Below, piece by piece: positions 860-18,727 of a DNA stretch of 46,409 nt (position 1 is the first letter of the stretch; the number at the start of each line of letters is the position of its first letter). Source of the stretch: Planctomycetaceae bacterium (GTDB lineage Bacteria > Planctomycetota > Planctomycetia > Planctomycetales > Planctomycetaceae). The position numbers and the translations under genes are program-made. Location: positions 1 through 46,409 of the forward strand of contig PBSL01000050.1 in the NCBI GenBank assembly GCA_002726205.1, written 5' to 3'. The notes under the pieces were generated by a model. It did not search any database, had not been told where the DNA came from, and was given only the letters and a program-made list of their open reading frames with translations.

Positions 860-932
860 CACGGGCGGAGGGACTTGAACCCCCAACCGCTGGATTTGGA
901 ATCCAGTGCTCTGCCAATTGAGCTACACCCGT
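860..932 (-). tRNA. tRNA-Trp (anticodon CCA)
   Basis: Reverse complement reads ACGGGTGTAGCTCAATTGGCAGAGCACTGGATTCCAAATCCAGCGGTTGGGGGTTCAAGTCCCTCCGCCCGTG. It has a 7-bp acceptor stem, a D-arm GCTC/GAGC, the anticodon loop ATTCCAAAT, and a T-arm GGGGG-TTCAAGT-CCCTC. It is close to E. coli tRNA-Trp. Confidence 0.9.
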
Positions 933-995
933 CTAGATCCTGAAAACCCCGCTGGTGAGGCAATCCACTGCCGATACCCTCCGGGATTGTCTGTA

Positions 996-1151
996 CTACT
1001 TCTTACGAGACTCCTTGTGCACCGTGTGTTTGCGGAGCTTGCGACAGTACTTCTTCAACTCCAGCCGCTCGGTCCCCCGGGTCTCCTTCTCGACGCGGTA
1101 GTTGCGTTCGCCACATTCAGTGCATTCCAGCCAGATGAATTCCCGTGCCAT
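996..1151 (-). CDS. rpmG: 50S ribosomal protein L33 (51 aa)
   Basis: The minus-strand translation MAREFIWLECTECGERNYRVEKETRGTERLELKKYCRKLRKHTVHKESRKK shows the L33 zinc-ribbon motif CxxC...YC. It is absent from the ORF track, presumably because of its short length. It lies between tuf and tRNA-Trp/secE. Confidence 0.85.
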   Translation of the reverse strand: MAREFIWLECTECGERNYRVEKETRGTERLELKKYCRKLRKHTVHKESRKK

Positions 1152-1234
1152 GACCGGCCTCCCGGAAGGGTCCGACCATCCCCGGACTCGTTGAAGGAAT
1201 CTCCGGGCAGGGCCGAACCGGTTGTCGCTGACGT

Positions 1235-2431
1235 CTACTCGACGATTTCGATGACCCGGCCCGAGCCGACCGTCTTACCGCCTTCGCGAATCGCGAACCG
1301 GCTGCCGCCGTCCATGGCGATCGGCTTGCCGAGCTCGATTTCCATGGTCACGTTGTCGCCGGGCATGCACATCTCAATACCATCGGGCAGGTGAGCGGCT
1401 CCGGTGACATCGGTGGTCCGGAAATAAAACTGTGGGCGATAGCCGGTAAAGAACGGGGTATGCCGTCCCCCTTCTTCCTTGGAAAGCACGTAGACCTCGC
1501 CCTTGAACTTCGTGTGCGGGTTGATCGATCCGGGGGCGGCCAGTACCTGGCCTCGCTGGATCTCGTCCTTCTTGACCCCACGCAGGAGGATACCGACGTT
1601 GTCGCCAGCCTCGCCGGTGTCGAGCGTCTTGTTGAACATCTCGACGCCCGTGCAGGTCGTCTCCGCCGTTTCTTCGAGTCCGATGATCTCGATCTTCTCA
1701 CCGACATTGATCACGCCCTGCTCGATCCGACCCGTGGCCACTGTCCCGCGACCCTCGATCGAGAACACATCCTCGACGGCCATCAGGAACGGCTTCTCGT
1801 TGTCACGGACCGGTTCGGGGATGTGGCTGTCGAGTGCTTCCATCAACTTACCGATGCACTCGTTGGCCGCTTCGTCTTCGGGCGAGTCCAGTGCCGGCTT
1901 GCTCGAGCCGTAGATCACCGGAATGTCGTCGCCGGGGAAATCGTACTTGTTCAACAGGTCGCGGATTTCTTCCTCGACCAGCATCAGGAGTTCTTCGTCA
2001 TCGACCAGGTCGACCTTGTTCAGGAACACGACCAGCGCGGGGACGTTCACCTGCCGGGCCAACAGGATGTGTTCCCGCGTCTGGGGCATCGGCCCGGTCC
2101 CGGCCTCGACCACCAGGATTGCACCGTCCATCTGAGCAGCGCCGGTGATCATGTTCTTGATGTAATCGGCGTGGCCGGGGCAGTCGATGTGAGCATAGTG
2201 CCGCGACTCGGACTCGTACTCGACATGACTGACGGCAATCGTCACCGTCTTGTTCTCGTCACGCACGGTCCCGCCCTTGGCGATGTCGGCATAGCTCTTG
2301 AACTCGGCCAGCCCCTTGGTCTGCTGCACCGCAAGAATGGCCGCTGTCAGTGTGGTCTTACCGTGGTCGATGTGACCGATTGTTCCCACGTTGACGTGCG
2401 GCTTGGTGCGTTCAAAGACTTCCTTAGCCAT
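1235..2431 (-). CDS. tuf: Elongation factor Tu
   Basis: [32 protein letters not shown]... with G1-G5 GTPase motifs ([18 protein letters not shown]) and the EF-Tu domain 2/3 signature. The start is trimmed from the track ORF (2647) to the ATG at 2429-2431, which is preceded by GGAGAG. The longer ORF would overlap tRNA-Thr. Confidence 0.97.
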
Positions 2432-2589
2432 TTTTCCAGTCTCTCCCGATCCTACTTTCGTACAAGGATACCTGCGTGTGTGAAAACCTGCCGGAACATC
2501 AGTTTCCCGGCCGACTTGAAACATCTTACCCGGGTCATCCGGGAACAACCTGACTAATACAGTAGCAGTTGACGGGCAATTCAAAAAGG

Positions 2590-2661
<72 letters not shown>

Positions 2662-2798
2662 CTGGGCAACTTCAGACGTCTCACCCCGGAACCGGGCAAC
2701 CCCACTTCCGACTTCCGAGCCCGCACCGGGCGGTGGACGGGAAACACGGGACTCGAAAAATCGGGATGCCAGGAGGGCTGTGCGGCGTCCGAACCAAG

Positions 2799-2870
<72 letters not shown>

Positions 2871-3060
2871 TCGTGGGTTCAAGGTCGGAACCCGGCGAGT
2901 TGAGGACTCCTTACTGGAAAGGAAACAATGAAAACCGATCTTCAATCAACCGACGTCAGCGCCGATGGGATCACAGGCAATGGCATCGCCGATACAATTC
3001 CATATCTTCGATTCTATATCTTCGATCCGAGTCACCGGCTCGGGCCAATAACTCGACAAG

Positions 3061-3142
<82 letters not shown>

Positions 3143-3222
3143 TAAACCACAAACTGCTCAACGAGCGTCGACAGAGTGTCTCAATGGAGCGTCCCCGGTC
3201 GGCCGCACCGAAAGGCACGGGA

Positions 3223-3295
3223 AGCTAGCGGTGGGACTCGAACCCACAACCTCCGGTTTACAAAACCGGGGCTCTGCCGATTGAGCTACGCTAGC
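3223..3295 (-). tRNA. tRNA-Thr (anticodon TGT)
   Basis: rc: GCTAGCGTAGCTCAATCGGCAGAGCCCCGGTTTTGTAAACCGGAGGTTGTGGGTTCGAGTCCCACCGCTAGCT. Anticodon loop TTTGTAA. Confidence 0.9.
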
Positions 3296-3327
3296 CCATA
3301 AAGCCTCGGGGGACAACAAGGCCGGTC

Positions 3328-3371: not shown

Positions 3372-5042
3372 TCAGTCGAGCCCGGCGATCTCCAGTTGAC
3401 CCCGCCTGGCCACACGCTCCAGTTTCTTCAACGCCCGGCTCTCCAACTGGCGAATCCGTTCCTTGGTCACTCCGAAGCGGCGTCCCACCTGCTCCAACGT
3501 CTGGGGTTCAGAACCTTCCGACAGACCGAACCGTCTCGTGATCACCTCGCGTTCGCGCGGGTCAAGATGTTCAAGGATTTCCATGATCACCTCGTGCTGC
3601 TGCCGATTGACCTTCTGTTCGAGAAACGGGTTGCCCCCCTCGTCCGATCGCGATCCGAAGAACTCCTCGTGCCCCGTGCGGAAACGATCCCGCTGCCGGT
3701 GTTCCCGCGGTACCGAGCGGGCAAAATTTCTCATGATCGCCCAGGTCGCGTAGGTCGAGAACTTGTTTCCCAGCAGATAATTGAACTTCTCGATTGCCCG
3801 GATCAGCGACAGGTTGCCGTCACTGACCATCTCGAAGAAGTTCATGCCGGGACGCAGATGCTTCTTGGCAATCGAGACGACCAGTCGCAGGTTGCTGCGG
3901 ATCAGAAAATTCTTCACCGCCATGCTCTCCTCGAGCAAAGCCTCGACGCGATCCATTCTCGCCGAGACCGGCCGGCGACCCCGCAAATCCTTCCGCGCCA
4001 CCGACGCCTGCCATCTCAGGAAGTTCATCTTCCGAAAATGATACTGCTCCTGTTCCCGCGTCAGCACCGGCAGCGTGTACAGCGAGGCCAGGTAGGCCGG
4101 CAGTCCCGGTGGTGCCTTGGTGGCCCGTGCCCCGGGATTTTCCGGTGCCTCCCCCAGGATCCACTCCGCGGCCCCCTGCTCACGAAACTCATCACTGTCC
4201 ATGAAATCGATCGGCTGCTCGAGCAGGATCTCGGCGCGGATCTCGGCGGCCACACGATAAATCGAGTTGCGGGTACGGCTGAAACGTCGGGCAAGCAGAT
4301 CGACCGAAGTGCCCTGGCGGAGCATCCGGTAGATCTCGCGACGATCCTCGCTCGAGAGCACCGCCGTCACGCCAAACACGGCGGCCTCGGGATGGATTCG
4401 GTCATGGTCGCGCAGCGTCGTCCGAATCGTCTCGGCCGAACGACCCATCCGCTTGGCCAACTGCTGGCTGATCTGCGTCGGGTTACTGCCACGCCGCGCA
4501 AGTTGCCTGGCTGCCTGCACGATCTCTTCTCGCTCCCGCGGCTTCAACTGGGAGAACCGGGATCCTCGCAGAACCTCGGTCGCGTGTCGGCGTGCGAACC
4601 GGTCCAGCGTTGACTGCAGGAACCCGATCCGTTTGCGGCCGTTGATCAGAAACCGCCGCGACACGAGTCCCCGATTCCGCCAGCGATCGACGGTCTTCGT
4701 CGAGACGTTGTACTGCGTTCCGACATCTTCGATCGTCAAGACCGCCTCGCCGACGTCGGCAACCGTCAGGTCGAGGCTATCCGAGAGGTCCTCGACAAAA
4801 CATCTCAGGTCCCGAATCGTCTCCTCGCCGGACAACACCAGGTCGGGATACTTGTCCGGGCGAAAACCGGTGATCTCCTCGCACACGTCCGGATAGGCGT
4901 AGGTCCGATCCGCATGCAGCCGATCCACGAACCGCTCGGTCCGCTCGATCTGCTCGAGCCGAACACCGCGAGGCGCAAAACGCACCTGCTGCCCGGCCAA
5001 CTGACTCAGCGCTGGATTCCGGTAGCGTGCCATCGGATACAT
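3372..5042 (-). CDS. Sigma-70 family RNA polymerase sigma factor with ~290-aa N-terminal extension (556 aa)
   Basis: Region 2 reads NLRLVVSIAKKH...FFEMVSDGNLSLIRAIEKFNYLLGNKFSTYATWAIMRNFARS, and C-terminal region 4 HTH reads TLEQVGRRFGVTKERIRQLESRALKKLE. It lacks the RpoD region-3 IRIPVHM signature and region 1.1. The N-terminal part contains HTH-like segments with no family match recognised by eye. Confidence 0.8.
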   Translation of the reverse strand: MYPMARYRNPALSQLAGQQVRFAPRGVRLEQIERTERFVDRLHADRTYAYPDVCEEITGFRPDKYPDLVLSGEETIRDLRCFVEDLSDSLDLTVADVGEAVLTIEDVGTQYNVSTKTVDRWRNRGLVSRRFLINGRKRIGFLQSTLDRFARRHATEVLRGSRFSQLKPREREEIVQAARQLARRGSNPTQISQQLAKRMGRSAETIRTTLRDHDRIHPEAAVFGVTAVLSSEDRREIYRMLRQGTSVDLLARRFSRTRNSIYRVAAEIRAEILLEQPIDFMDSDEFREQGAAEWILGEAPENPGARATKAPPGLPAYLASLYTLPVLTREQEQYHFRKMNFLRWQASVARKDLRGRRPVSARMDRVEALLEESMAVKNFLIRSNLRLVVSIAKKHLRPGMNFFEMVSDGNLSLIRAIEKFNYLLGNKFSTYATWAIMRNFARSVPREHRQRDRFRTGHEEFFGSRSDEGGNPFLEQKVNRQQHEVIMEILEHLDPREREVITRRFGLSEGSEPQTLEQVGRRFGVTKERIRQLESRALKKLERVARRGQLEIAGLD

Positions 5043-5357: not shown

Positions 5358-5822
5358 TTACTGCGACAGCAGCGGAATTCCACGTATCTTCAAGTACCCG
5401 GAAATTCCGACGATGGTCAGCGCCACCACGATCATCACGAGCAACGTCGCTGACGAGCGATCGCGAAATTTCTTCAGAACCTGTGAACGTCCGACCAGAG
5501 CCGACGCCAGGAAAAACAGCAGGAAGGCCAGCAGCATCTTGATCCCGACGAACATGTCATACCGCTTGTCGCTCGTATGCATCGGTCGCATCACAACCAG
5601 GTAATTGTAGAAACCGCTTACCAGCAACAACGCGATGCCGCCGTGCACGATCCATTTCCAGCGATTCGCCAGGCGGTCTCTCAGGTCAAGTTGAATCTCC
5701 TCCGGAATTTTCTTCACGCTGGGCAGCAATACGAACCGCAAGAAGACGGTCCCTCCGACCAGCACGATCGCCGTCGCAATGTGTACGACCCGCAAGATGG
5801 TCTGCATTGCCGAGTTGTCCAT
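5358..5822 (-). CDS. Hypothetical integral membrane protein (~155 aa, about 4 predicted TM helices) starting MDNSAMQTILRVVHIATAIVLVGG...
   Basis: Hydrophobic helices (ILRVVHIATAIVLVGGTVFL; WIVHGGIALLLVSGFYNYLVV; MFVGIKMLLAFLLFFLASALV; LLVMIVVALTIVGISGYL). The start is trimmed from the track ORF (6086) to an internal ATG. No family assigned. Coordinates here may be off by 1 nt. Confidence 0.5.
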   Translation of the reverse strand: MDNSAMQTILRVVHIATAIVLVGGTVFLRFVLLPSVKKIPEEIQLDLRDRLANRWKWIVHGGIALLLVSGFYNYLVVMRPMHTSDKRYDMFVGIKMLLAFLLFFLASALVGRSQVLKKFRDRSSATLLVMIVVALTIVGISGYLKIRGIPLLSQ

Positions 5823-5988
5823 CGCCGTGTTCTCCGTCGGAATTGGGTTTGGCCGCGGTGCCACCTCCCAGAGCCTAGCGATCGCGGCGCGGGGCTGGCA
5901 ACCACGCTTCACGACGCTCCCTGAACCCGGGGATCCTCGAGAAGAGGCGGGTGGCCACAACCGGGAGGATCTCCATACAATCAAACTC

Positions 5989-8445
5989 ATGGTTCCCCCG
6001 AAAGCCGTCCTGCTGTTGATCCTTGTCCTGGCCGTGACCAGGACGACCGCGGCCGATTCGAAACCGGCTCCCCAACCACGGGACAAGGCGGGAGTGGCCT
6101 ATTTCGAGAAGCACGTTCGTCCCCTGTTGATCCGGCGGTGCTATTCGTGCCACTCCGGCCAGGCCCGGCCCCTGCGAGGTGAACTCCGACTCGATACCCG
6201 GGCCGGTTGGCAACGTGGTGGAGAAAGTGGAACGGCAATCCGACCGGGACGCCCCAAGGCGAGCCTGCTGGTCAAGGCCGTCCGCTACGATGACGACAGC
6301 CTGCAGATGCCGCCGAAGCGGAAGCTCCCGGCCGACGAGATCAGGATTCTTGAGCACTGGATCAGCCTGGGTGCCCCGGACCCGCGAACCGGACACAAGA
6401 CCAGCGGCAGCAAGCGGGGCACGGCCGACCACTGGGCCTTCCGGCCCCTGGTGGCGCCGCCGATTCCCGGTGCCACGGTCGACCCCGGTGGCTGGTCCCA
6501 AACCCCCGTCGATCGCTTCCTGCTGTCCCGGCTCCGGGAGAACCAGCTCGCCCCCTCCCCTTCCGCCGATCGTCTCACGCTGATTCGACGCGTCAGTTTC
6601 GATCTCCTGGGCCTGCCGCCATCGCCGGAGGAGATCGAGACATTCCTGGCCGACCGCCAGCCGACCGCCTGGCAGCAACTGGTCGATCGACTGCTGGCCA
6701 GCCCACACTACGGCCAACGCTGGGGTCGTCACTGGCTGGACATCGCCCGCTACGCCGACTCGAACGGGCTCGACGAAAACGTCGCCCACGGCAATGCCTG
6801 GCGGTACCGTGACTGGGTGATTTCGGCCTGGAATTCCGGCCTGCCCTACGACCAGTTCGTCCGCCACCAGTTGGCCGGCGACCTGCTCCCCGACATCCCC
6901 TCCCCGGATCGTCAACGCCACCGTACCCAGCGACTGATCGCCACCGGTTTTCTTTCGCTGGGCCCCAAGGTGCTCGCCGAGGTCGATGCGAAGAAGATGG
7001 AGATGGACATCGTCGACGAGCAGGTCAATACGGTCGGGCGATCCTTCCTCGGACTGACACTTGGCTGCGCCCGTTGCCACGACCACAAGTTCGACCCGAT
7101 CTCGATGCGCGACTACTACGCCCTGGCCGGCGTGTTCCAGAGCACCAAGACCATGGAACACTTCAAGAAGGTGGCCCGTTGGTGGGAGAACCCGATCGCA
7201 ACCGCCACCGAACAGCAACGGCTCGCGAAGCACAAGAAACAACTGGCCGCAACGAAGGCCGAGATCGACAGCGTGATCAAGTCCGCCCGCGCGGACCTCG
7301 GCAAGACGCCCGGTTCCGGGGAGACGAAAACCAAGGACGAGGAATCCCGATTTCCGGTCGGGACACGAGACAAGTTGAAGTCGCTTCGCGCCGACCTCAA
7401 GACGCTCGAAACCACCATGCCCGAATTGCCCACCGCGATGGGAGTCATCGACGGTAAGGTCGCCGACACGCAGATTCATCTCCGTGGCAATCATCTCGCA
7501 CTGGGCGAGACCGTCCCCCGTGGTGTCCCGGAAGTGCTGGCCGGGACTGACAGCCGACGATTTCCCGCCGGCCAGAGCGGCCGCCTGGAACTGGCCAACT
7601 GGTTGACCGCTTCCAACCACCCGCTGACGGCTCGCGTGTTCGTCAACCGTCTCTGGCGGTGGCACTTCGGACGCGGCCTGGTGGCCACGACCGACAACTT
7701 CGGCCAGTTGGGCGACCGCCCGACTCACCCCCACCTGCTGGACTTTCTCGCCACGGAGTTCATCCGCGGCAACTGGTCGATCAAACGGCTGCACCGTCTG
7801 ATCGTCCTTTCGTCGGCCTACCGCATGCAGAGCAGCCCCCGGGCTGACGCGATGGCCGTCGATCCCGAAAACCGGCTGTGGTGGAGAAGTCCCCTGAGAC
7901 GTCTTGAGGCCGAGGCCCTGCGTGACGCGATGCTCTCGGTCACCGGATCGCTGGACACCTCGATGCGCGGATCCCTGCTGCACGTGAAGAACCGTGGCTA
8001 CTTCTTTGACCACACCTCAAAGGATGAAACCCGTTACAACGTCCCCCGGCGGTCGGTGTACCTGCCGGTCGTCCGCAACCATCTCTACGACGTTTTCACG
8101 CTGTTTGATTACACCGACGCGAGTGTGATGACCGGGCATCGCGCCACGACCACCGTCGCGCCTCAGGCGCTGTTCCTGCTCAACAGCAAGCTGGTCCATC
8201 GGGTCAGCCGCCAACTGGCCGGGGTGGCCCTGGACGCTCCGGCGGCCAACGTATCTCAGCGACTCGACCGACTCTACAGGCGGATCCTGGGACGTCCGGC
8301 CACGTCGACCGACCTGGACCACGCACGGCGGTTCCTGGACCGGGTCCAGGCGACCTTGCCACAGGGCAAGTCCACCCCCATCAACACCTGGACCGCCCTT
8401 TGTCATGTGCTCGTGGCGAGCAACGAGTTCATCTACCTGAAATGA
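5989..8445 (+). CDS. Secreted DUF1549/DUF1553 (PSCyt1/PSCyt2/PSD1) domain protein with CxxCH motif (818 aa from MVPPKAVLLL...)
   Basis: Signal peptide MVPPKAVLLLILVLAVTRTTAAD. PSCyt1-type CYSCHSG. DUF1549 block WGRHWLDIARYADSNG. DUF1553 block CARCHDHKFDP. C-terminal PSD1-like tail. The start is trimmed from the track ORF (5779) to the ATG beginning the signal peptide. Confidence 0.85.
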   Translation: MVPPKAVLLLILVLAVTRTTAADSKPAPQPRDKAGVAYFEKHVRPLLIRRCYSCHSGQARPLRGELRLDTRAGWQRGGESGTAIRPGRPKASLLVKAVRYDDDSLQMPPKRKLPADEIRILEHWISLGAPDPRTGHKTSGSKRGTADHWAFRPLVAPPIPGATVDPGGWSQTPVDRFLLSRLRENQLAPSPSADRLTLIRRVSFDLLGLPPSPEEIETFLADRQPTAWQQLVDRLLASPHYGQRWGRHWLDIARYADSNGLDENVAHGNAWRYRDWVISAWNSGLPYDQFVRHQLAGDLLPDIPSPDRQRHRTQRLIATGFLSLGPKVLAEVDAKKMEMDIVDEQVNTVGRSFLGLTLGCARCHDHKFDPISMRDYYALAGVFQSTKTMEHFKKVARWWENPIATATEQQRLAKHKKQLAATKAEIDSVIKSARADLGKTPGSGETKTKDEESRFPVGTRDKLKSLRADLKTLETTMPELPTAMGVIDGKVADTQIHLRGNHLALGETVPRGVPEVLAGTDSRRFPAGQSGRLELANWLTASNHPLTARVFVNRLWRWHFGRGLVATTDNFGQLGDRPTHPHLLDFLATEFIRGNWSIKRLHRLIVLSSAYRMQSSPRADAMAVDPENRLWWRSPLRRLEAEALRDAMLSVTGSLDTSMRGSLLHVKNRGYFFDHTSKDETRYNVPRRSVYLPVVRNHLYDVFTLFDYTDASVMTGHRATTTVAPQALFLLNSKLVHRVSRQLAGVALDAPAANVSQRLDRLYRRILGRPATSTDLDHARRFLDRVQATLPQGKSTPINTWTALCHVLVASNEFIYLK

Positions 8446-8469
8446 CCTGACCACGACGAAGTCACAACC

Positions 8470-9858
8470 ATGTTCACCCGCCGGCAGCTGCTGCAATCGA
8501 CCGCGGTCGGATTTCCCTGGCTGGCACTGCGAGGCCTACTCGAACCCGCCGCCGCCGCCCTGGATCCCCTGGCACCGCACAAGGGGCACCACCCGGCCCG
8601 CGCCAAGCGGATCCTGTTCCTGTTCATGAAGGGAGGCCCCTCGCAGGTCGACACGTTTGACTACAAACCGCGGCTGCAGGCCGATCACGGGAAACCGCTG
8701 CCGTTCGAAAAACCCCGGGTCCAGTTCGCCCCGACCGGCAAGCTGTTGAAATCTCCCTGGAGATTCCGTCGCTACGGAGATTGCGGACTCCCCGTCAGCG
8801 AGTTGTTCCCGCACACGGCCAGGCACGCCGACGATCTCTGCGTGATCAACTCGGTTCACGGCACCAACGCCGCCCACGGCGGGGCTGTCCTGAAAGTGCA
8901 TACCGGCAGCGACAGTTTCGTTCGTCCGAGTGTCGGGTCGTGGGTCAACTACGGGATGGGAACCGAAAACGCCAACCTGCCGGGCTTTGTGACGATTTGC
9001 CCTACGCTCGCCCACGGCGGCGTAAAGAACTGGGGCAGCGCCTTCCTGCCGGCACCGTTCCAGGGAACACCGATCGGCAACGCCAGCCAACCCTCGGCCG
9101 ACGCCCGCGTTCCCTACCTCGACAGCCCGGGCAAGTCACGCGGGCTACAGAGATTGAAACTCGACCTGCTCAAGCAGTTCAACCGCGACCACATCGCCGG
9201 CTTTGGGGACGACGGGAGGCTCGAGGCACGAATCAACGCTTTCGAACTCGCCTTCCGCATGCAGGATGAAATCCCCGCGATCCAGGATCTCTCCAAGGAA
9301 TCCAAGGCCACCCAGGCTCTGTATGGCCTCGACGAGAAGATCTCATCCGACTTCGGACGCCAGTGCCTGCTGGCACGGCGGTTCCTCGAGCGAGGTGTCC
9401 GGTTTGTCCAGGTCACACACAGTGACACGATGGTCCAGTGGGACCAGCACAGCAACCTCCTCAACGGTCATACCAAGAATGCCAAGGAAGTCGATCGACC
9501 GATTGCCGGGCTGCTGACCGACCTCAAGGCACGAGGACTCCTGGAAGATACCCTCGTGTGGTGGGGAGGCGAATTCGGACGAACACCTTGCGTCCAGGGT
9601 TCCAACGGCCGCGACCACAATCCCGACGGTTTCACGATGTGGCTGGCCGGCGGCGGCGCGCGTCCCGCCACACGGTTTGGTGCCACCGATGAATTCGGGT
9701 ACTACGCCCAGCAGCAAAAAGTCCACATCCACGACCTGCATGCGACGATCCTCCACCTGCTCGGACTCGACCACCAGCAACTGACCTATCGCTATGCCGG
9801 GCGTGACTTCCGCCTGACCGACGTGTACGGCAAGGTGGTCGACGGCGTGATTGCCTGA
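8470..9858 (+). CDS. DUF1501 family protein (sulfatase/alkaline-phosphatase-like) with TAT-type signal
   Basis: MFTRRQLLQSTAVGFPWLAL... contains a twin-arginine motif. The GGEFGRTP near the C-terminus is typical of DUF1501. It lies immediately downstream of the DUF1549/DUF1553 gene, the classic planctomycete pair. Confidence 0.85.
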   Translation: MFTRRQLLQSTAVGFPWLALRGLLEPAAAALDPLAPHKGHHPARAKRILFLFMKGGPSQVDTFDYKPRLQADHGKPLPFEKPRVQFAPTGKLLKSPWRFRRYGDCGLPVSELFPHTARHADDLCVINSVHGTNAAHGGAVLKVHTGSDSFVRPSVGSWVNYGMGTENANLPGFVTICPTLAHGGVKNWGSAFLPAPFQGTPIGNASQPSADARVPYLDSPGKSRGLQRLKLDLLKQFNRDHIAGFGDDGRLEARINAFELAFRMQDEIPAIQDLSKESKATQALYGLDEKISSDFGRQCLLARRFLERGVRFVQVTHSDTMVQWDQHSNLLNGHTKNAKEVDRPIAGLLTDLKARGLLEDTLVWWGGEFGRTPCVQGSNGRDHNPDGFTMWLAGGGARPATRFGATDEFGYYAQQQKVHIHDLHATILHLLGLDHQQLTYRYAGRDFRLTDVYGKVVDGVIA

Positions 9859-10258
9859 GACGTTTTCCGGGAGTGCAATCCCCGAAACCGATTCTTCCAG
9901 GCCCCGCGACCAGATGCAGCGGACCTCTCGACCTGATGCCCGAGAAACAAGCCCCGGATCAATCCTGGGTAAGATCCGCCCCCAGAGAGCGAATCACTTT
10001 CTAGGAACATCCGGTAGTTCCGCAAATTCGCGGACACCCGTCGCTGACCGGGCGATATCGAACATCACCAATCCGCAAATTCATTAAAAACCAAAAAGAT
10101 GGAAAAACCCGATAATCGCAGGAGATTTCGTTGACCCTGACACCTTTCCTATACGTTTTTATTTAGCAGGCTTACCCTTTTTGACTCATATTACTCTACT
10201 AGTCAGGAAGGCTGGCTCTCCGACCCAGGGGGCCCTGCCTGCCGGGAGTACCTAGAAC

Positions 10259-10888
10259 GTGTCTTTCTTGAATTTCGCCGGGACATTCGAAACATGGTTC
10301 ACCATGCCCATCCAGCCGTCGAGCGTCATCGTGGCGGTGCTGCTGGTCTATTGGTCGGTGGTGGCGTTGGGCGCGTTGGATGTCGAATTTCTCGACTGGG
10401 ATTTCGATCTCAACCTCGAAACCGATGCGAACGTCTTCGACATCGGCCTGGTTCCGCTGCGATTCCTCAACCTCGGTTCAATCCCGGTCATGATCTGGGT
10501 GAGCCTTTACGCGCTTGCGGCCTGGTTTCTTTCGATGGCCATTTCCCTTTACTGGGCACCCGACCAAACCCACGGGGTGGTGATTGCCGAGGCCTTCGGC
10601 CTGGCAATGCTGGTCACGAAATTCGTCACCAACCCGCTCAAGCCGATCTTCGAAACCACCGACACGAATCGGCCGGAATCCTTGATCGGACAGACCTGCA
10701 CGATCACGTCAATGACCGTCACTGCCAGCGGAGGCGAGGCCAGCTATGCGACAGGCCAGGCCCCGTTGATTCTGACTGTCCGCTGCCTCGACGGCGAACT
10801 GGAACGTGGGCACACCGCGGAAATCACCGAATACAGCAAAGATGATAACGCGTACTTCGTGTGCGCGACCAACGAGGAGAACAAGTGA
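10259..10888 (+). CDS. NfeD-like membrane protein (short form: N-terminal TM helices + C-terminal OB-fold)
   Basis: Has 3 hydrophobic helices, then ...GQTCTITSMTVTASGGEASYATGQAPLILTVRCLDGELERGHTAEITEYSKDDNAYFVCA, an NfeD C-terminal beta-barrel pattern. The stop overlaps the flotillin start (TGATG). The start codon is GTG (track) with GGGAG 10 nt upstream; an alternative in-frame ATG lies at 10304. Confidence 0.7.
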   Translation: MSFLNFAGTFETWFTMPIQPSSVIVAVLLVYWSVVALGALDVEFLDWDFDLNLETDANVFDIGLVPLRFLNLGSIPVMIWVSLYALAAWFLSMAISLYWAPDQTHGVVIAEAFGLAMLVTKFVTNPLKPIFETTDTNRPESLIGQTCTITSMTVTASGGEASYATGQAPLILTVRCLDGELERGHTAEITEYSKDDNAYFVCATNEENK

Positions 10889-13062
10889 TGGACATGCTAG
10901 ACAATCCAATCGTCCTGGGTGCAATCGTCGGCCTTGGCTTTCTGGTCGTGATGGCAATTGCCTTTACCAAGTTCTACCAGAAGCCCGGCCCCGAAGAGGC
11001 GATCGTCAAGACCGGCTTCGGAGGGCTGAAGGTCCAGACCGGGAGCGGCATGGTCGTGATCCCGCTGCTGCAGGACGCCTCGCGAATGGATCTGTCGGTC
11101 AAACGGATCGAGATCGCTCGTGAGAACGAGGACGGGCTGATCTGCAAGGACAACATCCGTGCCGACATCCGGGTGGCCTTTTATGTCCGCGTCAACAACG
11201 CCGACGCGGACATCAAGCAGGTCGCCGAGATGATCAACCCCAAGCGAGCCTCCCAGCTCGACCAGCTGGTCGAGCTCTTCGAAGCCAAGTTCTCCGAGGC
11301 ACTCAAGACCGTCGGCAAGCAGTTTGATTTCGTCCAGCTCTACACCGATCGTGACAGTTTCCGGGACGAGATCATCCGGGTGATCGGCACCGATTTGAAC
11401 GGTTACCGTCTCGACAACTGCCATATTGACTACCTCGAACAGACGCTGCTGGAAAAACTCAACCCGCACAACATCCTCGACGCCGACGGGATCAAGAAGA
11501 TCACCCAGTTGACGACGCAGGAAAACGTCAAGCGAAACCATTTCGCAGTGGAAGAAGCCAAGATCATCAAGCAACAGGACGTCGACCGGGACGAGGCGCT
11601 CTACGAACTCGAACGCCAACGTGTCGATGCCGAGCAGAAACAGCAGCGGGAGATCGCCGAGATCACGGCGAGGAACCAGGCGGCGGCGGCGGCGGTCCAG
11701 GAAGAAGAGCGACAGCGGGCCGAGTCGGCACGGATCGTAGCCGAGGAAACGATCCAGGTTGCCGAGCAGAACAAGGATCGGCAGATCATCGTCGCCCTGA
11801 GGAACAAGGAGCGGACCGACCAGGTCGAAATCGAACGGGTCGAGAAGGACCGGATGCTCGAGGTGACCGAGCGTGAACGCGTGGTCGGCCTGGCCGATAT
11901 CGAAAAGGAAAAGGCCATCGAGATCGAGAAGCGGAACATCCAGGAGGTGATTCGCGAGCGGGTGATGGTCGAACGTGGCGTGGTCGAAGAACAGGAGAAC
12001 ATCAAGAACACCCAGGAGTTCATGGGTGCGGATCGCGAAAAGCAGGTCGCGGTGACCCTGGCCGAGAAGACGGCCCAGGAGGCGTTGGTCAAGGAAGTCA
12101 AGGCGGCCGAAGCACAGAAACAGTCGGCCGAGTTCTCGGCTCAGACGATCGTGATCGAGGCCGAAGCACAGCGGGCATCAGCGGAAAAGGAAATGCAGTC
12201 GACCAAGATGTTGGCCGAGGCCAAGAGCGCCGACGAGGCTGCGTCAGGATTGGCCGAAGCCACCGTCACCGTGGCCAAGGCCGATGCCCTCGAGAAACAG
12301 GGGACCGCCGAGGCGACGGTGATTTCACGCAAGGGCGAGGCCGAGGCGACCGTGATCGACCAGACCGGCGGCGCCGAGGCGACCGTCGTGCAGAAGAAGG
12401 CGGTCGCGGTGGCCAAGGGCGACGAGGCGAAGGCAGTGGCGACCGAGAAGGTCGGAACGGCCGAGGCCAACGTGATGGAACTGAAGTTCAATGCCGAGGC
12501 GAACGGCATCAAGGAAAAGGCCGGGTCGATGAAGCTCTTCCACGACGCCGGCAAGGAGCACGAGGAATTCAAGCTCCAGTTGAACAAGGACAAGGATATC
12601 GAGATCGCCGCGATCGGGGCACAGCAGCAGATTGCCGAGGCCCAGGCCGAGATCGTCGGCGAGGCGTTGAAGACTGCCCGCATCGACATCGTCGGCGGGG
12701 AAACGACGTTCTTCGACAAGATTGTCGATTCGGTCAAGGCCGGTAAGAGCGTCGATCGTTACATCAGCAACAGTGAAGTGCTCACCGACGTGAAGAACAC
12801 CTTCTTCAATGGCGACAACGAGTATTTCAGTGCCCAATTGCGAGCCTTCGCGACCCAGTTCGGGGTCAGTTTCGAGGATGTCAAGGACCTGTCAGTCGCG
12901 GCACTGGTGGGCCGGATGATCACGATGGCCGACAGTGATTCCGACAAGTCGAAGCTCGAAGACCTGTTGCGGGTCTTCCGCGGCACGGGACTGGCTAACG
13001 AGAAGATCGCGTCGCTGGGGCTGAGTGACAGTCAATCGATCGCAGACAAGAAGGCCAAGTAG
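10888..13062 (+). CDS. Flotillin-like SPFH/band-7 protein (YqiK/FloT type), 724 aa
   Basis: N-terminal TM helix (MDMLDNPIVLGAIVGLGFLVVMAIAF). SPFH core (EEAIVKTGFGGLKVQTGSGMVVIPLLQDASRMDLS...). Very long EA-rich coiled coil and a C-terminal flotillin tail. GAGGAG RBS 8 nt upstream. The start is trimmed from track 10861 to the ATG at 10888. Confidence 0.88.
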   Translation: MDMLDNPIVLGAIVGLGFLVVMAIAFTKFYQKPGPEEAIVKTGFGGLKVQTGSGMVVIPLLQDASRMDLSVKRIEIARENEDGLICKDNIRADIRVAFYVRVNNADADIKQVAEMINPKRASQLDQLVELFEAKFSEALKTVGKQFDFVQLYTDRDSFRDEIIRVIGTDLNGYRLDNCHIDYLEQTLLEKLNPHNILDADGIKKITQLTTQENVKRNHFAVEEAKIIKQQDVDRDEALYELERQRVDAEQKQQREIAEITARNQAAAAAVQEEERQRAESARIVAEETIQVAEQNKDRQIIVALRNKERTDQVEIERVEKDRMLEVTERERVVGLADIEKEKAIEIEKRNIQEVIRERVMVERGVVEEQENIKNTQEFMGADREKQVAVTLAEKTAQEALVKEVKAAEAQKQSAEFSAQTIVIEAEAQRASAEKEMQSTKMLAEAKSADEAASGLAEATVTVAKADALEKQGTAEATVISRKGEAEATVIDQTGGAEATVVQKKAVAVAKGDEAKAVATEKVGTAEANVMELKFNAEANGIKEKAGSMKLFHDAGKEHEEFKLQLNKDKDIEIAAIGAQQQIAEAQAEIVGEALKTARIDIVGGETTFFDKIVDSVKAGKSVDRYISNSEVLTDVKNTFFNGDNEYFSAQLRAFATQFGVSFEDVKDLSVAALVGRMITMADSDSDKSKLEDLLRVFRGTGLANEKIASLGLSDSQSIADKKAK

Positions 13063-13099
13063 TCGGGGTCCGGCACCCCCCTTGCCAGGAACTCCCGTG

Positions 13100-16000
13100 A
13101 TGGCTGACGCAGAGCATCCGCACGATGATGCGGTGGCGACTGACTCACCGGACGTGTCCCCGGTGGACTCCGGGGACGCTGCGTCGGAGATGCAGCTGGA
13201 GAGCGGGACATACGAGATCATCCGACAGCGGTTGAGCAGTCACGGCCAGGGTCTTCGCCAGCGACTCGCCAAGCTCAACACCGGACGCAAGGACGCCTTC
13301 GGATCGATCGACACGGCGCTGCTGGGCACCGAGCGGATCACGACCGCGCACAACTGCGTACCCCGCGACATGGTCTCGATCGGACCACACCTGCTGTTCG
13401 GTTACAACGTGACGTTCGGGCTGAAATCGGAAATCACCGTCACCGACGTCTTCGCTGTCCACGAGTTCGTCGAAGGCAAGTTCCAGGCCGCCCCGCTGGC
13501 ATTGATCGATGATGACCGCTTCCAGAAGGACTTCGAAGACGTCTACAAGTACTACAAGCACGCGACCTTCGCGAAGTTCTTCCAGGCCGGGCCGAACCTG
13601 TACATGATCTTCCGCGTCGGGGCCTCGGTTTCCGACATCAAGACCTTCAAGTGGGCCATCACCGACGACCGGCTGGTTTACGTCGACAGCCGTTCCGACC
13701 ACGAGGTCCGGTTTCCGCCGCAGCATGGTTTCGAGTGGTCACGGGCGACACGCGACATGCACCGCGCGGGGGAACATCCCCATGTCTCGATCGACGACCG
13801 CCTGTTTGTCGAAACCGTCGGTGGCGACCTGACCGTCAAGATCGAGAACAACACGGCCAGCGGTGCAGGGATCTACACCGAACCGGTCGACCACGTCGAC
13901 CAGACGCTCGACGACGCCGACATCAACTTCTCTCTGCTCGGCAACATCATCCTGCTGAAAATTCGTCCCTACCAGGAACAGACCGACCGTTACCTCGTCT
14001 ACAACGAGAAGGCCGAACAGGTCGTGCGACTCGACACGATCGAACATGCCTGCGTACTGCTGCCCGACGACCACGGCCTGGTCTTCTCCAACGGGTACTA
14101 CCTGCAGACCGGCGAGTACAAGGCGTTCGAAAGCGATCTGCAGGACATGCTGTTCGATCGTCGGATCGACTCGCCCAACGGAGAGGACTTTCTCTACGTC
14201 TTCTACAACCGCGAAAACGGTATCTACATCCTGCTCAACTACAACCTGATCTCGCAGCAGATCGAAACACCACTGATCTGCAATGGCTACACGATGTTCG
14301 AAGGCGGCGAACTGGTCTGCTTCCGCGCCCAGGACGCCGCGTCCAAGCACCACGCGATCCAGATCTGGCAGACCCCCTTCACCGGGGAAGGCTACGAACC
14401 GCCCGGACAGGAAGAGACCTACCTGCACAAGATCGGCAACAAGGAGATCGTCCGGGGGATGGCCGAGTGCCACGAGGTACTGGGGCTGATCGGCAAGGAA
14501 GACACCTACGCCAACCTCTATGTCGACATCGTCAAGCAGGCCACCGACATCCTCGACAGCTTCTTCTGGATCAGCAGCGAGGAAACCGGTGGTCTGGCCG
14601 AGCCGCTGACGGCAATCCGTGATGCCGCCGCCGCGGGCATTGACGAGTACGAGAAAGTCGTCCGCGTCAGACGGAACACCGCCGCGGAGACGGGCCGCGT
14701 CGAGGAAGAAACGCGGGCGATCATCGCTGATGTCGGTCGCCGCCGTTTCGAATCGATCCAGGACTTCGTCGATTCGCTCACCGCACTGCGGCGGATCCGC
14801 GGCGACATCATCACGCTGCGAGACCTCCGCTACGTCGACGCCTCGCTCGTCGACACACTCGAGGAAGAGGTCGGCCAGCAAAACGACACGCTCTCGCATC
14901 GTTGTGTCGAGTTCCTGCTGCAACCCGCCTCGCTGGCCCCGTACCAGGAAAAAGTGGTCGCCGAGCACGCCCAGATCGAGAGCCTGACGAAAGTCACCGA
15001 CGCCAGGTCGCTCGAGGAAAACATCAGCCAGAGCGCAGCTGACCTGGAAATGCTGATCGACATCGTCAGCAATCTCGACATCGACGACGCCACACAGCGA
15101 ACCACGATCATCGACAACATCTCGAACATCTTCTCGACGGTCAACCAGGCCCGGACGGCGTTGAAGAAGAAGTCGCGGGACCTGATGTCGGTCGAAGGTG
15201 TCGCGGAATTCAACTCGCAGTTGAAACTGCTCGACCAGTCGATCGTCAATTTTCTCGACGTCTGCGACACACCCGAGAAATGCGACGAGTTGCTGACGAA
15301 AGTGATGATCCAGATCGAGGAACTCGAGGGCCGCTTTGCCGAGTTCGACGAGTTCGTCGTCCAGCTCTCGGAGAAGCGAGACGAGGTCTACAACGCGTTT
15401 GAAACGCGGAAACTGCAGCTTGTCGAGGCCCGCAACAGACGGGCCAACGCGTTGATGGCCGCCGCCGAGAGAATCCTCGGAGGAATCCAGTCCCGGGTGG
15501 GCACTCTCGAGAGCGTCAACGATATCAACGGTTACTTCGCCGCTGACCTGATGATCGACAAGGTCCGTGACATCGTCGACCAGCTCACCGAACTCGACGA
15601 CAGCGTCAAGGTCGATGACATCCAGAGCCAGCTGAAGACGATCCGCGAAGACGCGGTCCGCCAGTTGAAGGACCGACAGGATCTGTTCGTCGGTGGCGAA
15701 AACGTCATCAAGATGGGCAACCACCATTTCTCCGTCAACGTCCAGCAGCTGGACCTGACCACCGTGTTCCGCGACGACGAGATGACCCTGCACCTGACCG
15801 GGACGAACTTCTTCGAGCCGGTCGACGACGACACCTTCCTGGCGACACGCGACCTGTGGAACCAGGAGATCGTCAGCGAGACACCCAACGTGTATCGGGG
15901 CGAGTACCTGGCCTACCAATTGCTGGGTGCCCTGGGAGGCGACGAGCTGCCAACGCCGGCGGACTTCCTGGCCCTCGAAAAGCCCGGCCGACTGGAAATC

Positions 16001-18727
16001 GTCCAGGAGTTCATGGGACCGCGGTACGCCGAGGCCTACGTCAAGGGAATTCACGATCACGATGCCGAGACCATCCTCGTCTCGTTGTTGCAGATGAACG
16101 ACCAGATCGGGTTGTTGCGGTACCACGCCCGGGCCCGCGCGATGGCCAAGGTCTTCTGGAACCACTTTGGCGAAAAGGCCGGCAAGGACCGCATCGCCTC
16201 GCAGTTGAAAGGTTTCGGCAATATCGGCGAGGTGTTTCCCGGCACAACCGCCCAGGCCGCCTACGTCACAACGCTGACCGGCATGCTCGAGGAATTCGTC
16301 TCGGCCGAAGGACTGTTTGACGCCGCACTGGTGACCGAGGCGGCCGAGTACCTGTTTGCCGAGTTGTGCCATCCCGCGACCGGGTTTGTCATCAGTCGCA
16401 CGGCAGCCGAACTCTACGAGTCCTTCACGGGACATCTCAAGAGTTCCAGCCACGCCGACCGCTTCTCGGCAAGCCTCAATGCTGTCAAGAAAGACCCCGC
16501 CGGTGGCCTGCATGTCGCCCGGGACTGGGTCGAAGCGTTCCTGGAAAGCCGCGACGATTCCGAATCCACCGACCACGTCGACGAGGTCGCGACGCTGTTG
16601 CTCGGCGGGAACCTCGAGCGCCGGAACGTGATCGACGCGTCCGCCGTCACCGATCTCGACGGCATCACCGGCGACCATCCGATGATCGACGGCGACAGCT
16701 ACCACCTGCACTACAACCGCTTCATGCAGAAACTCACCGGCTTCCACAACAACCGGGTGCCACGCTTCCTGGCCTACCAGGACCAGAAGAAAGAACTCGT
16801 CGAGCTGGCCCGCGATTCAATGCGACTCGACGAATTTCGCCCCCGCGTGCTGACGTCCTTCGTCCGCAACAAGTTGATCGACCAGGTCTACCTACCAGTG
16901 ATCGGAGACAACCTCGCCAAGCAGATCGGCGTGGTCGGAGAGGAGAAGCGGACCGACCTGATGGGATTGCTGCTGCTGGTCTCACCGCCGGGCTACGGCA
17001 AGACCACCCTGATGGAATACATCGCCAACAGGCTCGGCGTGATCTTCATGAAGATCAACGGACCGGCCATCGGCCACCAGGTCACGTCACTGGATCCGGC
17101 CGAGGCGCCCAACGCGGCAGCCCGCGAGGAACTCCAGAAACTCAACCTCGCCCTGGAAATGGGCGACAACGTGATGATCTACGTCGACGACATCCAGCAC
17201 ACCAACCCCGAATTCCTGCAGAAGTTCATCTCGCTGTGCGATGCGCAACGAAAGATCGAGGGCGTCTACAAGGGACGGACCCGTACCTACGACCTCCGCG
17301 GACGCAAGGTCTCGGTCATCATGGCGGGCAACCCCTACACCGAGAGTGGCGAGAAGTTCCAGATCCCGGACATGCTGACCAACCGGGCCGACATCTATAA
17401 CCTCGGCGAGATGATCGGCGAGAATGCCGACTCGTTCGAGATGAGCTATCTGGAGAACTGCCTGACATCCAACTCGGCACTCAATCAACTCGCCACCCGC
17501 AGCCAGAACGACGTCTACGCGGTGATTCGAATGGCACAGGGAGACCCGGCTGAGGACGTCGAAATCGAGGGCAATTATTCGACCGAGGAACTCGGCGAGT
17601 TCGTCGCCGTCATGAAGAAACTGATGCGGGTTCGTGACGTGATCCTGGCGGTCAACCGCGAGTACATCCGCTCGGCGGCCATGTCGGACGATTACCGCAC
17701 CGAGCCGGCCTTCAAGCTGCAAGGTTCCTACCGGAACATGAATCGGATCGCCGAAAAAGTGGTCCCGATCATGAATGACAATGAACTCGAATCACTGATC
17801 CTCTCGAATTACGAGAACGACTCCCAGACACTGACCTCCGACACCGAAGCCAACATGCTGAAGTTCAGGGAGTTGATCGGTGCCCTCGATGAGGAGGAAC
17901 TCAGCCGCTGGGAGCAGATCAAGAAGACGTTCCAGCAAAACGTCAAGCTCCGCGGCGTCGGCAGCGACGACCGGATCGGCCAGGTCGTGGTGCAGTTGAG
18001 CAGTTTCAGCGAAGGACTCGAGTCGATCCGCGACGCGATGACCGATGGCCTGCAGCAACTGGCCGCCGAAGACGGCCGCGGCACCGGAGAGGCCGACACG
18101 GGAGACGAAACGGTCGATTCGATCGGGGAAGTTGCCGGGCAATTGACCCAGCAGCTCGAAGGTGTGACGACCGGACTGGACGAAATCCGGCTGGCCATGG
18201 CCTCGGGCATCGACCGACTCGCATCCGAAACCGACCGGCCCGGTGACGGCGTCGTCGATGAAAGGATCTCCGGGCACGTGGCCGAGCTGAAAGCAAGCCT
18301 CGATGCCATCCGCGATGCGCTGGCCGAAGCCGCAGCGCGACCGGTGACGGTAACCGCCTCCCCGGGACCGATCGCCGAAGAGGACACCGACGAGAATCAG
18401 CAGGCGGGAGGAATTCCGGTCCGGGTCGTCGAGCCCGACGATCCGGAGGATGACGACGGCGAAGAAGAACTCGAGCAACTCAATACCGCAAACACGATCA
18501 CCGTCGTCAACAAGATTCCTCCGAGCCTGTTGAAAGTGCTGCGACAGCAGTTCCTGCTGATGGAGGGCTGGATGGAGCCGATCCTCAAGAACAGTCAGTC
18601 AACTCAGAACGACCTGAAGCTGTTGGGTGAACGGCTCGACGCGACGATGGACGATTACGAACGCCTGATCGGCCAGGTCTCGGAATCCCGGAAGAAAAGC
18701 AGTCGCGCCCGGCGGGCCGACAAGTGA
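13100..18727 (+). CDS. Giant (~1875 aa) protein with C-terminal MoxR/AAA_5-like AAA+ ATPase domain; N-terminal ~1300 aa of unrecognised fold
   Basis: Walker A is LLLLVSPPGYGKTTL and Walker B is MIYVDDIQHTNPE. The MoxR-like stretch AGNPYTESGEKFQIPDMLTNRADIYNL resembles NP.E..G.f.lPeaqlDRF. It has central coiled-coil segments and an acidic C-terminal tail. The start is set to the ATG at 13100 (AGGAA upstream), 37 nt after the flotillin stop. The track ORF begins at a GTG that overlaps flotillin. Confidence 0.75.
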   Translation: MADAEHPHDDAVATDSPDVSPVDSGDAASEMQLESGTYEIIRQRLSSHGQGLRQRLAKLNTGRKDAFGSIDTALLGTERITTAHNCVPRDMVSIGPHLLFGYNVTFGLKSEITVTDVFAVHEFVEGKFQAAPLALIDDDRFQKDFEDVYKYYKHATFAKFFQAGPNLYMIFRVGASVSDIKTFKWAITDDRLVYVDSRSDHEVRFPPQHGFEWSRATRDMHRAGEHPHVSIDDRLFVETVGGDLTVKIENNTASGAGIYTEPVDHVDQTLDDADINFSLLGNIILLKIRPYQEQTDRYLVYNEKAEQVVRLDTIEHACVLLPDDHGLVFSNGYYLQTGEYKAFESDLQDMLFDRRIDSPNGEDFLYVFYNRENGIYILLNYNLISQQIETPLICNGYTMFEGGELVCFRAQDAASKHHAIQIWQTPFTGEGYEPPGQEETYLHKIGNKEIVRGMAECHEVLGLIGKEDTYANLYVDIVKQATDILDSFFWISSEETGGLAEPLTAIRDAAAAGIDEYEKVVRVRRNTAAETGRVEEETRAIIADVGRRRFESIQDFVDSLTALRRIRGDIITLRDLRYVDASLVDTLEEEVGQQNDTLSHRCVEFLLQPASLAPYQEKVVAEHAQIESLTKVTDARSLEENISQSAADLEMLIDIVSNLDIDDATQRTTIIDNISNIFSTVNQARTALKKKSRDLMSVEGVAEFNSQLKLLDQSIVNFLDVCDTPEKCDELLTKVMIQIEELEGRFAEFDEFVVQLSEKRDEVYNAFETRKLQLVEARNRRANALMAAAERILGGIQSRVGTLESVNDINGYFAADLMIDKVRDIVDQLTELDDSVKVDDIQSQLKTIREDAVRQLKDRQDLFVGGENVIKMGNHHFSVNVQQLDLTTVFRDDEMTLHLTGTNFFEPVDDDTFLATRDLWNQEIVSETPNVYRGEYLAYQLLGALGGDELPTPADFLALEKPGRLEIVQEFMGPRYAEAYVKGIHDHDAETILVSLLQMNDQIGLLRYHARARAMAKVFWNHFGEKAGKDRIASQLKGFGNIGEVFPGTTAQAAYVTTLTGMLEEFVSAEGLFDAALVTEAAEYLFAELCHPATGFVISRTAAELYESFTGHLKSSSHADRFSASLNAVKKDPAGGLHVARDWVEAFLESRDDSESTDHVDEVATLLLGGNLERRNVIDASAVTDLDGITGDHPMIDGDSYHLHYNRFMQKLTGFHNNRVPRFLAYQDQKKELVELARDSMRLDEFRPRVLTSFVRNKLIDQVYLPVIGDNLAKQIGVVGEEKRTDLMGLLLLVSPPGYGKTTLMEYIANRLGVIFMKINGPAIGHQVTSLDPAEAPNAAAREELQKLNLALEMGDNVMIYVDDIQHTNPEFLQKFISLCDAQRKIEGVYKGRTRTYDLRGRKVSVIMAGNPYTESGEKFQIPDMLTNRADIYNLGEMIGENADSFEMSYLENCLTSNSALNQLATRSQNDVYAVIRMAQGDPAEDVEIEGNYSTEELGEFVAVMKKLMRVRDVILAVNREYIRSAAMSDDYRTEPAFKLQGSYRNMNRIAEKVVPIMNDNELESLILSNYENDSQTLTSDTEANMLKFRELIGALDEEELSRWEQIKKTFQQNVKLRGVGSDDRIGQVVVQLSSFSEGLESIRDAMTDGLQQLAAEDGRGTGEADTGDETVDSIGEVAGQLTQQLEGVTTGLDEIRLAMASGIDRLASETDRPGDGVVDERISGHVAELKASLDAIRDALAEAAARPVTVTASPGPIAEEDTDENQQAGGIPVRVVEPDDPEDDDGEEELEQLNTANTITVVNKIPPSLLKVLRQQFLLMEGWMEPILKNSQSTQNDLKLLGERLDATMDDYERLIGQVSESRKKSSRARRADK

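Follow-up and report, generated by a model that had tools for sequence, protein, structure and literature searches.

A giant MoxR-like AAA+ protein encoded behind a YqiJ-like protein and a flotillin in a planctomycete: a further member of a conserved operon

What does a giant ATPase do when its gene stands directly behind those of a membrane scaffold? The question is raised by positions 10259-18727 of a 46,409-nucleotide stretch of DNA from a Planctomycetaceae bacterium (contig PBSL01000050.1, assembly GCA_002726205.1), hereafter called the window. Three genes follow each other there on the same strand, and encode a YqiJ/NfeD-like protein with three transmembrane (TM) segments, a YqiK-type flotillin (SPFH family) and a soluble protein of 1875 amino acids. 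We report that the association of the three genes is strongly conserved among bacteria, the giant being specifically linked to the flotillin gene, and that a module known only from comparative genomics gains here one more member, of the abbreviated form.

The stop codon of the first gene overlaps the start codon of the flotillin gene as TGATG, and the giant open reading frame (ORF) starts 37 nt past the flotillin stop (TAG, 13060-13062), behind an AGGAA ribosome-binding site. Both junctions had been pointed out in a preliminary description of the locus, and were found as described in the raw sequence. A consensus scan of the + strand between 9700 and 19300 detected no terminator-like site. Because the junctions are tight and the + strand is free of terminator-like sites, the three genes look like one unit, in agreement with that description. 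The 400-bp AT-rich stretch that it placed before the first gene was recovered as well: its GC content is 52.8%, compared to 61.9% for the whole window, and 37.6% in a core at 10060-10200. No + strand promoter was found in this leader by a sigma-70 consensus scan, which may not suit planctomycetes, and an Rfam search for an RNA element in it gave no match. The genes downstream of the giant are convergent, an 85-aa ORF being followed by a dehydrogenase of the Ldh_2 family.

The neighbourhood of the giant gene was then compared between genomes. One genome per GTDB species was scanned by motif, which gave at least 600 stretches, with at least 589 confirmed relatives of the giant protein. The best 80 of these at least 589 relatives were retained (47-78% identity; Planctomycetota, Bacteroidota, Verrucomicrobiota, Desulfobacterota and Clostridia), ORFs were called at the loci, and iterative searches with hidden Markov models (HMM) were seeded with the three window proteins. 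Adding 11 loci, namely a contig with an identical giant, a Gimesia genome and nine more distant records from plasmids or chromids (37-51% identity; Hymenobacter, two from Streptomyces, Deinococcus, P. fluorescens pQBR103, Proteus, Vibrio, Halomonas and Nonomuraea), brought the number examined to 91. Six of them had too little upstream sequence, which left 85 informative loci.

A flotillin homologue was present upstream of the giant, on the same strand, in 78 of the 85 informative loci (92%), and these loci belong to at least 7 phyla (Planctomycetota, Bacteroidota, Verrucomicrobiota, Desulfobacterota, Clostridia, Actinomycetota, Deinococcota, Gammaproteobacteria). The YqiJ-like gene was also present in 63 of the 78, while in 9 the contig ended before the position where it would lie. 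Gene order was kept in all nine distant records. Median gaps were 15 bp between the YqiJ-like and flotillin genes, and 122 bp between the flotillin and giant genes. The association that had been read from the window is therefore found again at most loci, and giants encoded away from SPFH/NfeD genes are the minority. The converse coupling fails, as the yqiJ-yqiK pair of E. coli has no giant third gene. Distance matrices of the three proteins correlated pairwise (r = 0.70-0.78, Mantel p = 0.001, n = 58), which fits inheritance as a unit.

At 21 loci the flotillin-giant gap exceeded 400 bp. The ORFs inserted there were mutually unrelated and some of them resembled mobile elements. A conserved fourth gene was considered and rejected, given the unrelated nature of these ORFs (GxxExxY-type, DUF559-like and IS200-like proteins, lipoproteins). 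Small ORFs of mobile or selfish appearance, of the GxxExxY type, DUF559-like or similar to the IS200 transposase, separate the flotillin and giant genes of some Verrucomicrobiota and Bacteroidota (loci L027, L033, L042, L047 and L073), so that the pair evidently tolerates interruption.

The preliminary description had seen in this locus a new kind of system. This did not hold, as the same trio operon was described by Ravi et al. (mSystems 2024, PMC11237479; preprint 2020) in section 19 and Table S3. The order given there is YqiJ/YuaF, then a protein with Band-7, coiled-coil and flotillin regions, then a protein with a beta-propeller, a coiled coil and an AAA-ATPase. Some operons are extended by CesT/Tir-PspA, whereas a PspA-less abbreviated form is widespread, and the authors tied the module to the PSP envelope-stress network and proposed a chaperone-like assembly of membrane-linked complexes (PMC11237479). 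The window has the same three components in the same order, and the architecture of the giant was confirmed here by structure prediction. It differs from the extended operon by the lack of PspA, CesT/Tir and the cHTH-protease regulator, and planctomycete giants add an acidic tail of ~225 residues. The paper of Ravi et al. gives no adjacency statistics, AAA+ clade assignment or experiment. No experimental study of the trio was found in the literature searched, and queries joining flotillin, AAA+/MoxR ATPase and NfeD returned nothing relevant. An earlier SPFH survey, from 2009, described the conserved NfeD-SPFH operon and never mentioned an ATPase partner (PMC2636767).

By sequence, the product of gene 2 is a YqiK-type flotillin. 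It is 30% identical to E. coli YqiK over 450 aa (BLASTP, E = 3e-48), and an identical sequence carries the public name 'flotillin family protein'. It has a single TM segment (residues 8-26), and its E/A/Q/R-rich helical region (residues ~230-560) aligns with the coiled coil of YqiK. By analogy to YqiK, the bulk of the protein would face the cytoplasm, held by a single N-terminal TM anchor. The window flotillin had no hit above threshold in Pfam, Band_7 included, and no match among PDB sequences; the orthologue of P. fluorescens pQBR103 passes Pfam Band_7 (42.5 bits, cut-off 23.6). A conserved C-terminal module of ~150 aa is common to the flotillins of the trio (residues ~560-724 in the window protein, ~12560-13059 in the DNA). 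E. coli YqiK has no match to this module, and the profile HMM aligns to YqiK only over positions 7-444 of 687.

Gene 1 encodes, as judged from profile alignments, a NfeD relative of the YqiJ/YuaF type. Three TM segments (residues 22-40, 77-95 and 106-124) precede a C-terminal soluble domain. A profile of 17 orthologues aligned with E. coli YqiJ over 175 columns (hhalign, probability 96.8%, E = 2.9e-10), and the last ~70 residues align with the soluble domain of YqiJ, where an OB fold is only putative. Pfam scores of the protein and its orthologues were below threshold (YqiJ_N, 13.1-22.7 bits for a cut-off of 23; NfeD, 16.8 for 29.1), and the YqiJ-like profile had no match among PDB sequences. 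The GTG start at 10259 is backed by alignment to homologues. Homologues of the first two genes of the trio, in the same order and with the same tight coupling, form the NfeD2-SPFH2 pairs yqiJ-yqiK of E. coli and yuaF-floT of B. subtilis. In E. coli, unlike in the trio, yqiK is followed by sibD/ibsD, and YqiK (553 aa) shows no match to the C-terminal module of the trio flotillins.

The third protein belongs to a large family, with more than 4900 homologues in a word-indexed protein search; clustered at 50% identity, its N-terminal 1200 residues fall into ~1,467 groups. The preliminary description had recognised no motif in the ~1300 residues upstream of the ATPase domain. Pfam models do in fact match there: DUF3686 (PF12458) at residues 52-489, with full-length coverage of the model (E = 1.4e-189), and DUF7902 at residues 611-693 (E = 2.3e-26); with the AAA model, all three are matched in the protein. 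The giant was modelled with AlphaFold2 (AF2) in two parts, residues 1-870 and 851-1710, on 32-sequence alignments. Mean predicted local distance difference test (pLDDT) values were 84.6 and 82.3, respectively, and the resulting architecture is reported in Table 1. Foldseek matched the model of residues 1-870 to WD40, Kelch and prolyl-oligopeptidase propellers. It also returned propeller-plus-solenoid proteins such as IFT-A and Elp1, with low TM-scores, so that the match holds at the level of domains only. Among PDB sequences, the giant matched AAA P-loops only.

Table 1. Features of the three-gene locus and of the giant protein. Window positions are given where available; residue numbers are those of the giant protein.
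Feature	Window positions	Strand	Giant residues	Remarks
AT-rich intergenic leader, presumed operon promoter region	9859-10258	.		400 bp, low GC
Gene 1, YqiJ/YuaF-type NfeD-like	10259 (GTG)-10888	+		209 aa; GGGAG 9 nt upstream
Gene 2, YqiK-type flotillin/SPFH	10888 (ATG)-13062	+		724 aa; GAGGAG 8 nt upstream
Intergenic spacer, 37 nt	13063-13099	+		AGGAA ribosome-binding site 13087-13091, read from sequence
Gene 3, giant AAA+ protein	13100 (ATG)-18727	+		1875 aa; DUF3686 family
Disordered stretch			1-33	AF2 model
Helix			35-67	AF2 model; precedes propeller
Beta-propeller	13316-14371	+	73-424	AF2 model and Foldseek
Long-helix/coiled-coil region	14420-15682	+	441-861	AF2 helices of up to 58 residues; includes DUF7902
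Small beta unit and uncatalogued helical domain	15683-16885	+	862-1262	AF2 model
Small beta unit			869-907	AF2 model
Helical domain proper			~930-1170	AF2 model
AAA+ module (single), including lid and helical extension	16886-18049	+	1263-1650	
Walker A			K1301	
Walker B			D1363-D1364	
Sensor-1			N1411	
Arg-finger candidate			R1429	
Sensor-2 candidate			R1545	
Acidic, partly helical C-terminal tail	18050-18724	+	1651-1875	only in some lineages

Between the long helices and the AAA+ module lies a middle domain (residues 862-1262) for which no PDB match was found by profile, and Pfam gave only scattered hits in single members. In the alignments, one of its helices opens with an invariant motif, G983-x-H985-D986-x-D988 (window 16046-16063). 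A reading of this GxHDxD motif as a HD-phosphohydrolase was dropped, as a conserved upstream histidine is missing and profiles lend it no support. At the C-terminus, the acidic tail that had been noticed earlier is present: D and E make up 21% of the last 225 residues, which include EPDDPEDDDGEEELE, and the pLDDT is low where the tail was modelled (to residue 1710). In Bacteroidota and other phyla the homologues measure 1600-1650 aa, and tblastn matches to them end near residue 1650. The giant has no TM or other hydrophobic segment. It is thus predicted to be soluble, and would share the compartment of the flotillin bulk if that bulk is cytoplasmic as in YqiK. One homologue is found under a eukaryotic label: the 'eukprot' protein P0069 is 65% identical to the planctomycete giant, and is more likely to come from bacterial contamination of a eukaryotic data set than from a genuine eukaryote.

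The ATPase motifs quoted in the preliminary description, SPPGYGKTTL, YVDDIQH and NPYTESGEKFQIPDMLTNRADIYNL, are all present in the giant sequence. It had placed a MoxR-type ATPase near the C-terminus. The type was borne out by fold matches, but the AAA+ core (residues ~1290-1440 of 1875) lies about three quarters along the protein rather than at its end. The catalytic motifs are intact: K1301, D1363-D1364, N1411, R1429 and R1545 are conserved without exception in a set of 19 homologues (31-51% identity). Their roles are deduced from position and from the analogy with MoxR-type ATPases. The best fold matches of the module were MoxR-type proteins (CbbQ, NorQ), dynein and midasin. Like the MoxR family (CbbQ, NorQ, RavA) and the AAA_5 proteins dynein and midasin, it has a pre-sensor-1 beta-hairpin, at ~1385-1398 in the AF2 model. 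MoxR proteins carry the motif ATQNP...G...LPEA.LDRF and the sensor 2 GxSPR, and the giant has AGNP...G..F.IPDML.NRAD and GSYR at the corresponding places. At the level of predicted fold, the module is best assigned to the MoxR/dynein/midasin group, its closest fold being of the MoxR or clade-7 type.

Several features set the giant apart from the MoxR family. It is 1875 aa long, compared to ~300 aa. Its AAA_5 match is marginal (23.6 bits for a cut-off of 22), the generic AAA model (PF00004) scoring higher at 28.7 bits, and its Walker B reads D-D-I-Q-H (residues 1363-1367, window 17186-17200), without variation in the family, where D-E would be usual; judging from this substitution, ATP hydrolysis may be slow or regulated. 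Finally, no VWA/MIDAS partner gene is found beside it. The lack of a VWA partner had been remarked upon before and was confirmed: the adjacent window genes, which encode PSCyt/PSD1, DUF1501, Ldh_2 and FAD-binding flavoprotein products, hold no VWA domain, nor was one present among the 25 commonest Pfam families of the 118 neighbours of 30 loci.

Databases give the family another role. It is labelled 'DNA repair ATPase' at NCBI, 'MoxR-like ATPase' at JGI, and 'ATPase involved in DNA repair' in PF12458. If the first and last of these names were right, the giant would act in DNA repair, and its adjacency to a flotillin gene would be incidental. Weak RuvB_N matches go in the same direction, as does the LexA-family regulator (cHTH + S24) found beside Bacteroidota loci. 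However, the RuvB matches are confined to the P-loop region, span ~50 residues around Walker A and reach 25.6 bits for a family cut-off of 282, and searches of the giant revealed no domain for DNA binding, no nuclease domain and none specific to helicases. The literature searched mentions neither DUF3686, nor DUF7902, nor a flotillin together with a DNA repair ATPase. Moreover, an adjacency of 92% to a membrane scaffold gene cannot be incidental. The name 'DNA repair ATPase' thus appears to be unsupported, and we consider a role in repair very improbable.

We infer the interaction of the three proteins, their oligomeric state, the substrate of the ATPase and the role in the stress response as follows. 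The pairing of SPFH proteins with NfeD is well established, and is the basis for the first step, in which the flotillin and its NfeD partner would form an oligomeric SPFH scaffold at the inner (cytoplasmic) face of the membrane. The soluble giant would dock onto this scaffold by its beta-propeller and/or its long helices, a likely candidate for the docking site being, from its sequence conservation in trio flotillins, the C-terminal module of the flotillin. When the membrane is under stress, the MoxR-like AAA+ module would then use ATP to build up, take apart or remodel the scaffold or its clients. The nearest parallels are the action of Vps4 on polymers of the ESCRT-III/PspA type, and that of MoxR ATPases on a dedicated partner. 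The comparison with Vps4 and ESCRT-III/Snf7, and with the AAA+ partners of bacterial PspA, is one of concept: a dedicated AAA+ protein is encoded beside a membrane-bound polymer or scaffold that it possibly remodels, and the trio is itself linked to PspA in Bacteroidota. We give this proposal, in which a docked giant remodels scaffold or clients during envelope stress, about an even chance of being correct. That the flotillin is the direct partner or substrate of the ATPase is its best-supported inference; the preliminary description had likewise suggested the flotillin scaffold as the partner. The stricter version, with the giant as a dedicated ATP-driven machine for the assembly or disassembly of flotillin (SPFH) cages, is possible but less likely than not.

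Several observations weigh against the remodelling proposal. No flotillin or YqiJ-like gene was nearby in 7 of the 85 loci (L019, L025, L038, L014, L017, L083, L085), so the ATPase can be encoded apart from the scaffold; L019, L025 and L038 each had more than 7.6 kb of upstream sequence, with unrelated genes. A common species phylogeny would by itself also be expected to produce the correlation of the distance matrices. Being the ones closest to the query, the 80 genome loci under-represent distant branches, although the nine distant records agree with them. With DD in the place of DE at Walker B, the catalytic rate is uncertain. Finally, no PspA or CesT/Tir homologue was found in the 46-kb window, which therefore holds the abbreviated form of the operon.

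The scaffold could also be a mere platform or corral, on which the giant acts on other clients, for example by extracting, unfolding or assembling membrane-associated proteins. A link between SPFH assemblies and AAA+ machines is indeed established for HflK/C and for YbbK (QmcA), both functionally coupled to FtsH (PMC2636767). The beta-propeller and the GxHDxD helical domain could bind or process third-party clients, and the chaperone-like assembly proposed by Ravi et al. would be of this kind (PMC11237479). FtsH is a membrane-anchored protease of the classical AAA+ clade, whereas the giant is soluble, MoxR-like and without a protease domain. Against the platform, Pfam and PDB searches found neither a protease nor another effector domain in the giant. 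Nor does a conserved fourth gene go with the trio, the inserted ORFs being heterogeneous and the flanks variable. We regard the platform as unlikely, yet as the first of the rivals to be considered, ahead of a defence module and, last, of the DNA repair label.

A role of the ATPase in envelope stress is suggested by the context of the trio outside the window. In 17 Bacteroidota loci (L003, L016, L031, L033, L036, L037, L039-L041, L050, L054, L064, L071, L075, L078, L080, L084), CesT/Tir-PspA genes are found directly upstream of the trio, with a divergent regulator of the LexA family (cHTH + S24). This layout equals that of the Dokdonia example of Ravi et al., and the divergent regulator suggests that the extended loci are controlled by a cleavable repressor. 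On pQBR103 (L004, 56-3110), genes for DUF2491, DUF350, DUF1190 and a glutathionylspermidine-synthase-like (GSP-synthase-like) protein directly precede the trio. Genes of the yjf type such as these have been linked to PspA systems (PMC11237479); no PspA gene was detected in the pQBR103 stretch that was fetched.

The same context bears on another proposal, that of a defence-like module, which had been put forward as an example of what the locus might be. The trio would then be an anti-phage or other conflict system, sensing an invader and responding at the membrane in the manner of abortive infection. Its distribution across phyla is patchy, it is also carried by large plasmids and chromids, and some neighbouring ORFs match PADLOC models such as SspH, MzaA, DpdF, BrxH and a WGR/SWIM/HEAT set. 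Against this, PADLOC gave only weak, generic hits in the AAA region of the giant (E >= 3e-4; mad8, 3.4e-4; IetA, 1e-3) and none for the other two proteins, and there was no sign of an effector domain of the nuclease, toxin or pore-forming kind. A PADLOC and Pfam analysis of 118 flanking ORFs from 30 loci revealed no recurrent defence family, the neighbours being heterogeneous and mostly metabolic or housekeeping genes. Five XRE-type regulators account for all the repeated HTH, 'RmrA' and 'Control_protein' matches in these flanks. The window itself belongs to the core chromosome and has ordinary planctomycete flanks, including a tRNA-tuf cluster, PSCyt/PSD1 and DUF1501 upstream of the trio, and Ldh_2 and a FAD-binding flavoprotein downstream. 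The defence proposal was not sustained by these results, and we consider it improbable.

If the stricter version of the remodelling proposal is correct, the giant would be the first regulator of an SPFH scaffold known to depend on energy; no ATP-driven regulator of such scaffolds was found in the literature searched. It would be, in concept, a bacterial counterpart of Vps4/ESCRT-III, in which a MoxR/dynein-like AAA+ module is fused to a propeller-plus-helical arm resembling coat proteins. The trio is widespread, with at least 589 species representatives having a relative of the giant, nearly always encoded with the scaffold, and it is found in tractable hosts (Pseudomonas with pQBR103, Proteus, Vibrio, Streptomyces). 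It would thus offer a direct experimental handle on the assembly, turnover and dynamics of SPFH scaffolds, and on the PspA-linked envelope stress network. Added here to the earlier description are the adjacency statistics, the MoxR/dynein/midasin fold assignment, the GxHDxD helical domain, the C-terminal module specific to trio flotillins, and the finding that the database name, a misleading one that sits on thousands of sequences, appears to be unsupported.

Other features were noted in the flanks of the window. Directly upstream of the module, positions 5779-9858 hold two genes, the first for an 888-aa PSCyt1/PSCyt2/PSD1 protein and the second for a 462-aa DUF1501 protein. This pair is typical of planctomycetes and marks the window as planctomycete chromosome. 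On the minus strand, 3372-5042 encodes a 556-aa protein of the sigma-70 family, with additional HTH_38, HTH_23 and HTH_7 matches in its N-terminal half. Further out, 7 kb upstream of the module, a tRNA-Thr/Tyr/Gly/Thr - tuf - tRNA-Trp cluster occupies 858-3296, also on the minus strand. In this cluster, tRNA-Thr(ggt) at 2588-2661 overlaps the mechanically called ORF 1235..2647, which is 470 aa long and has EF-Tu domains, and the real start of tuf must therefore be further downstream.

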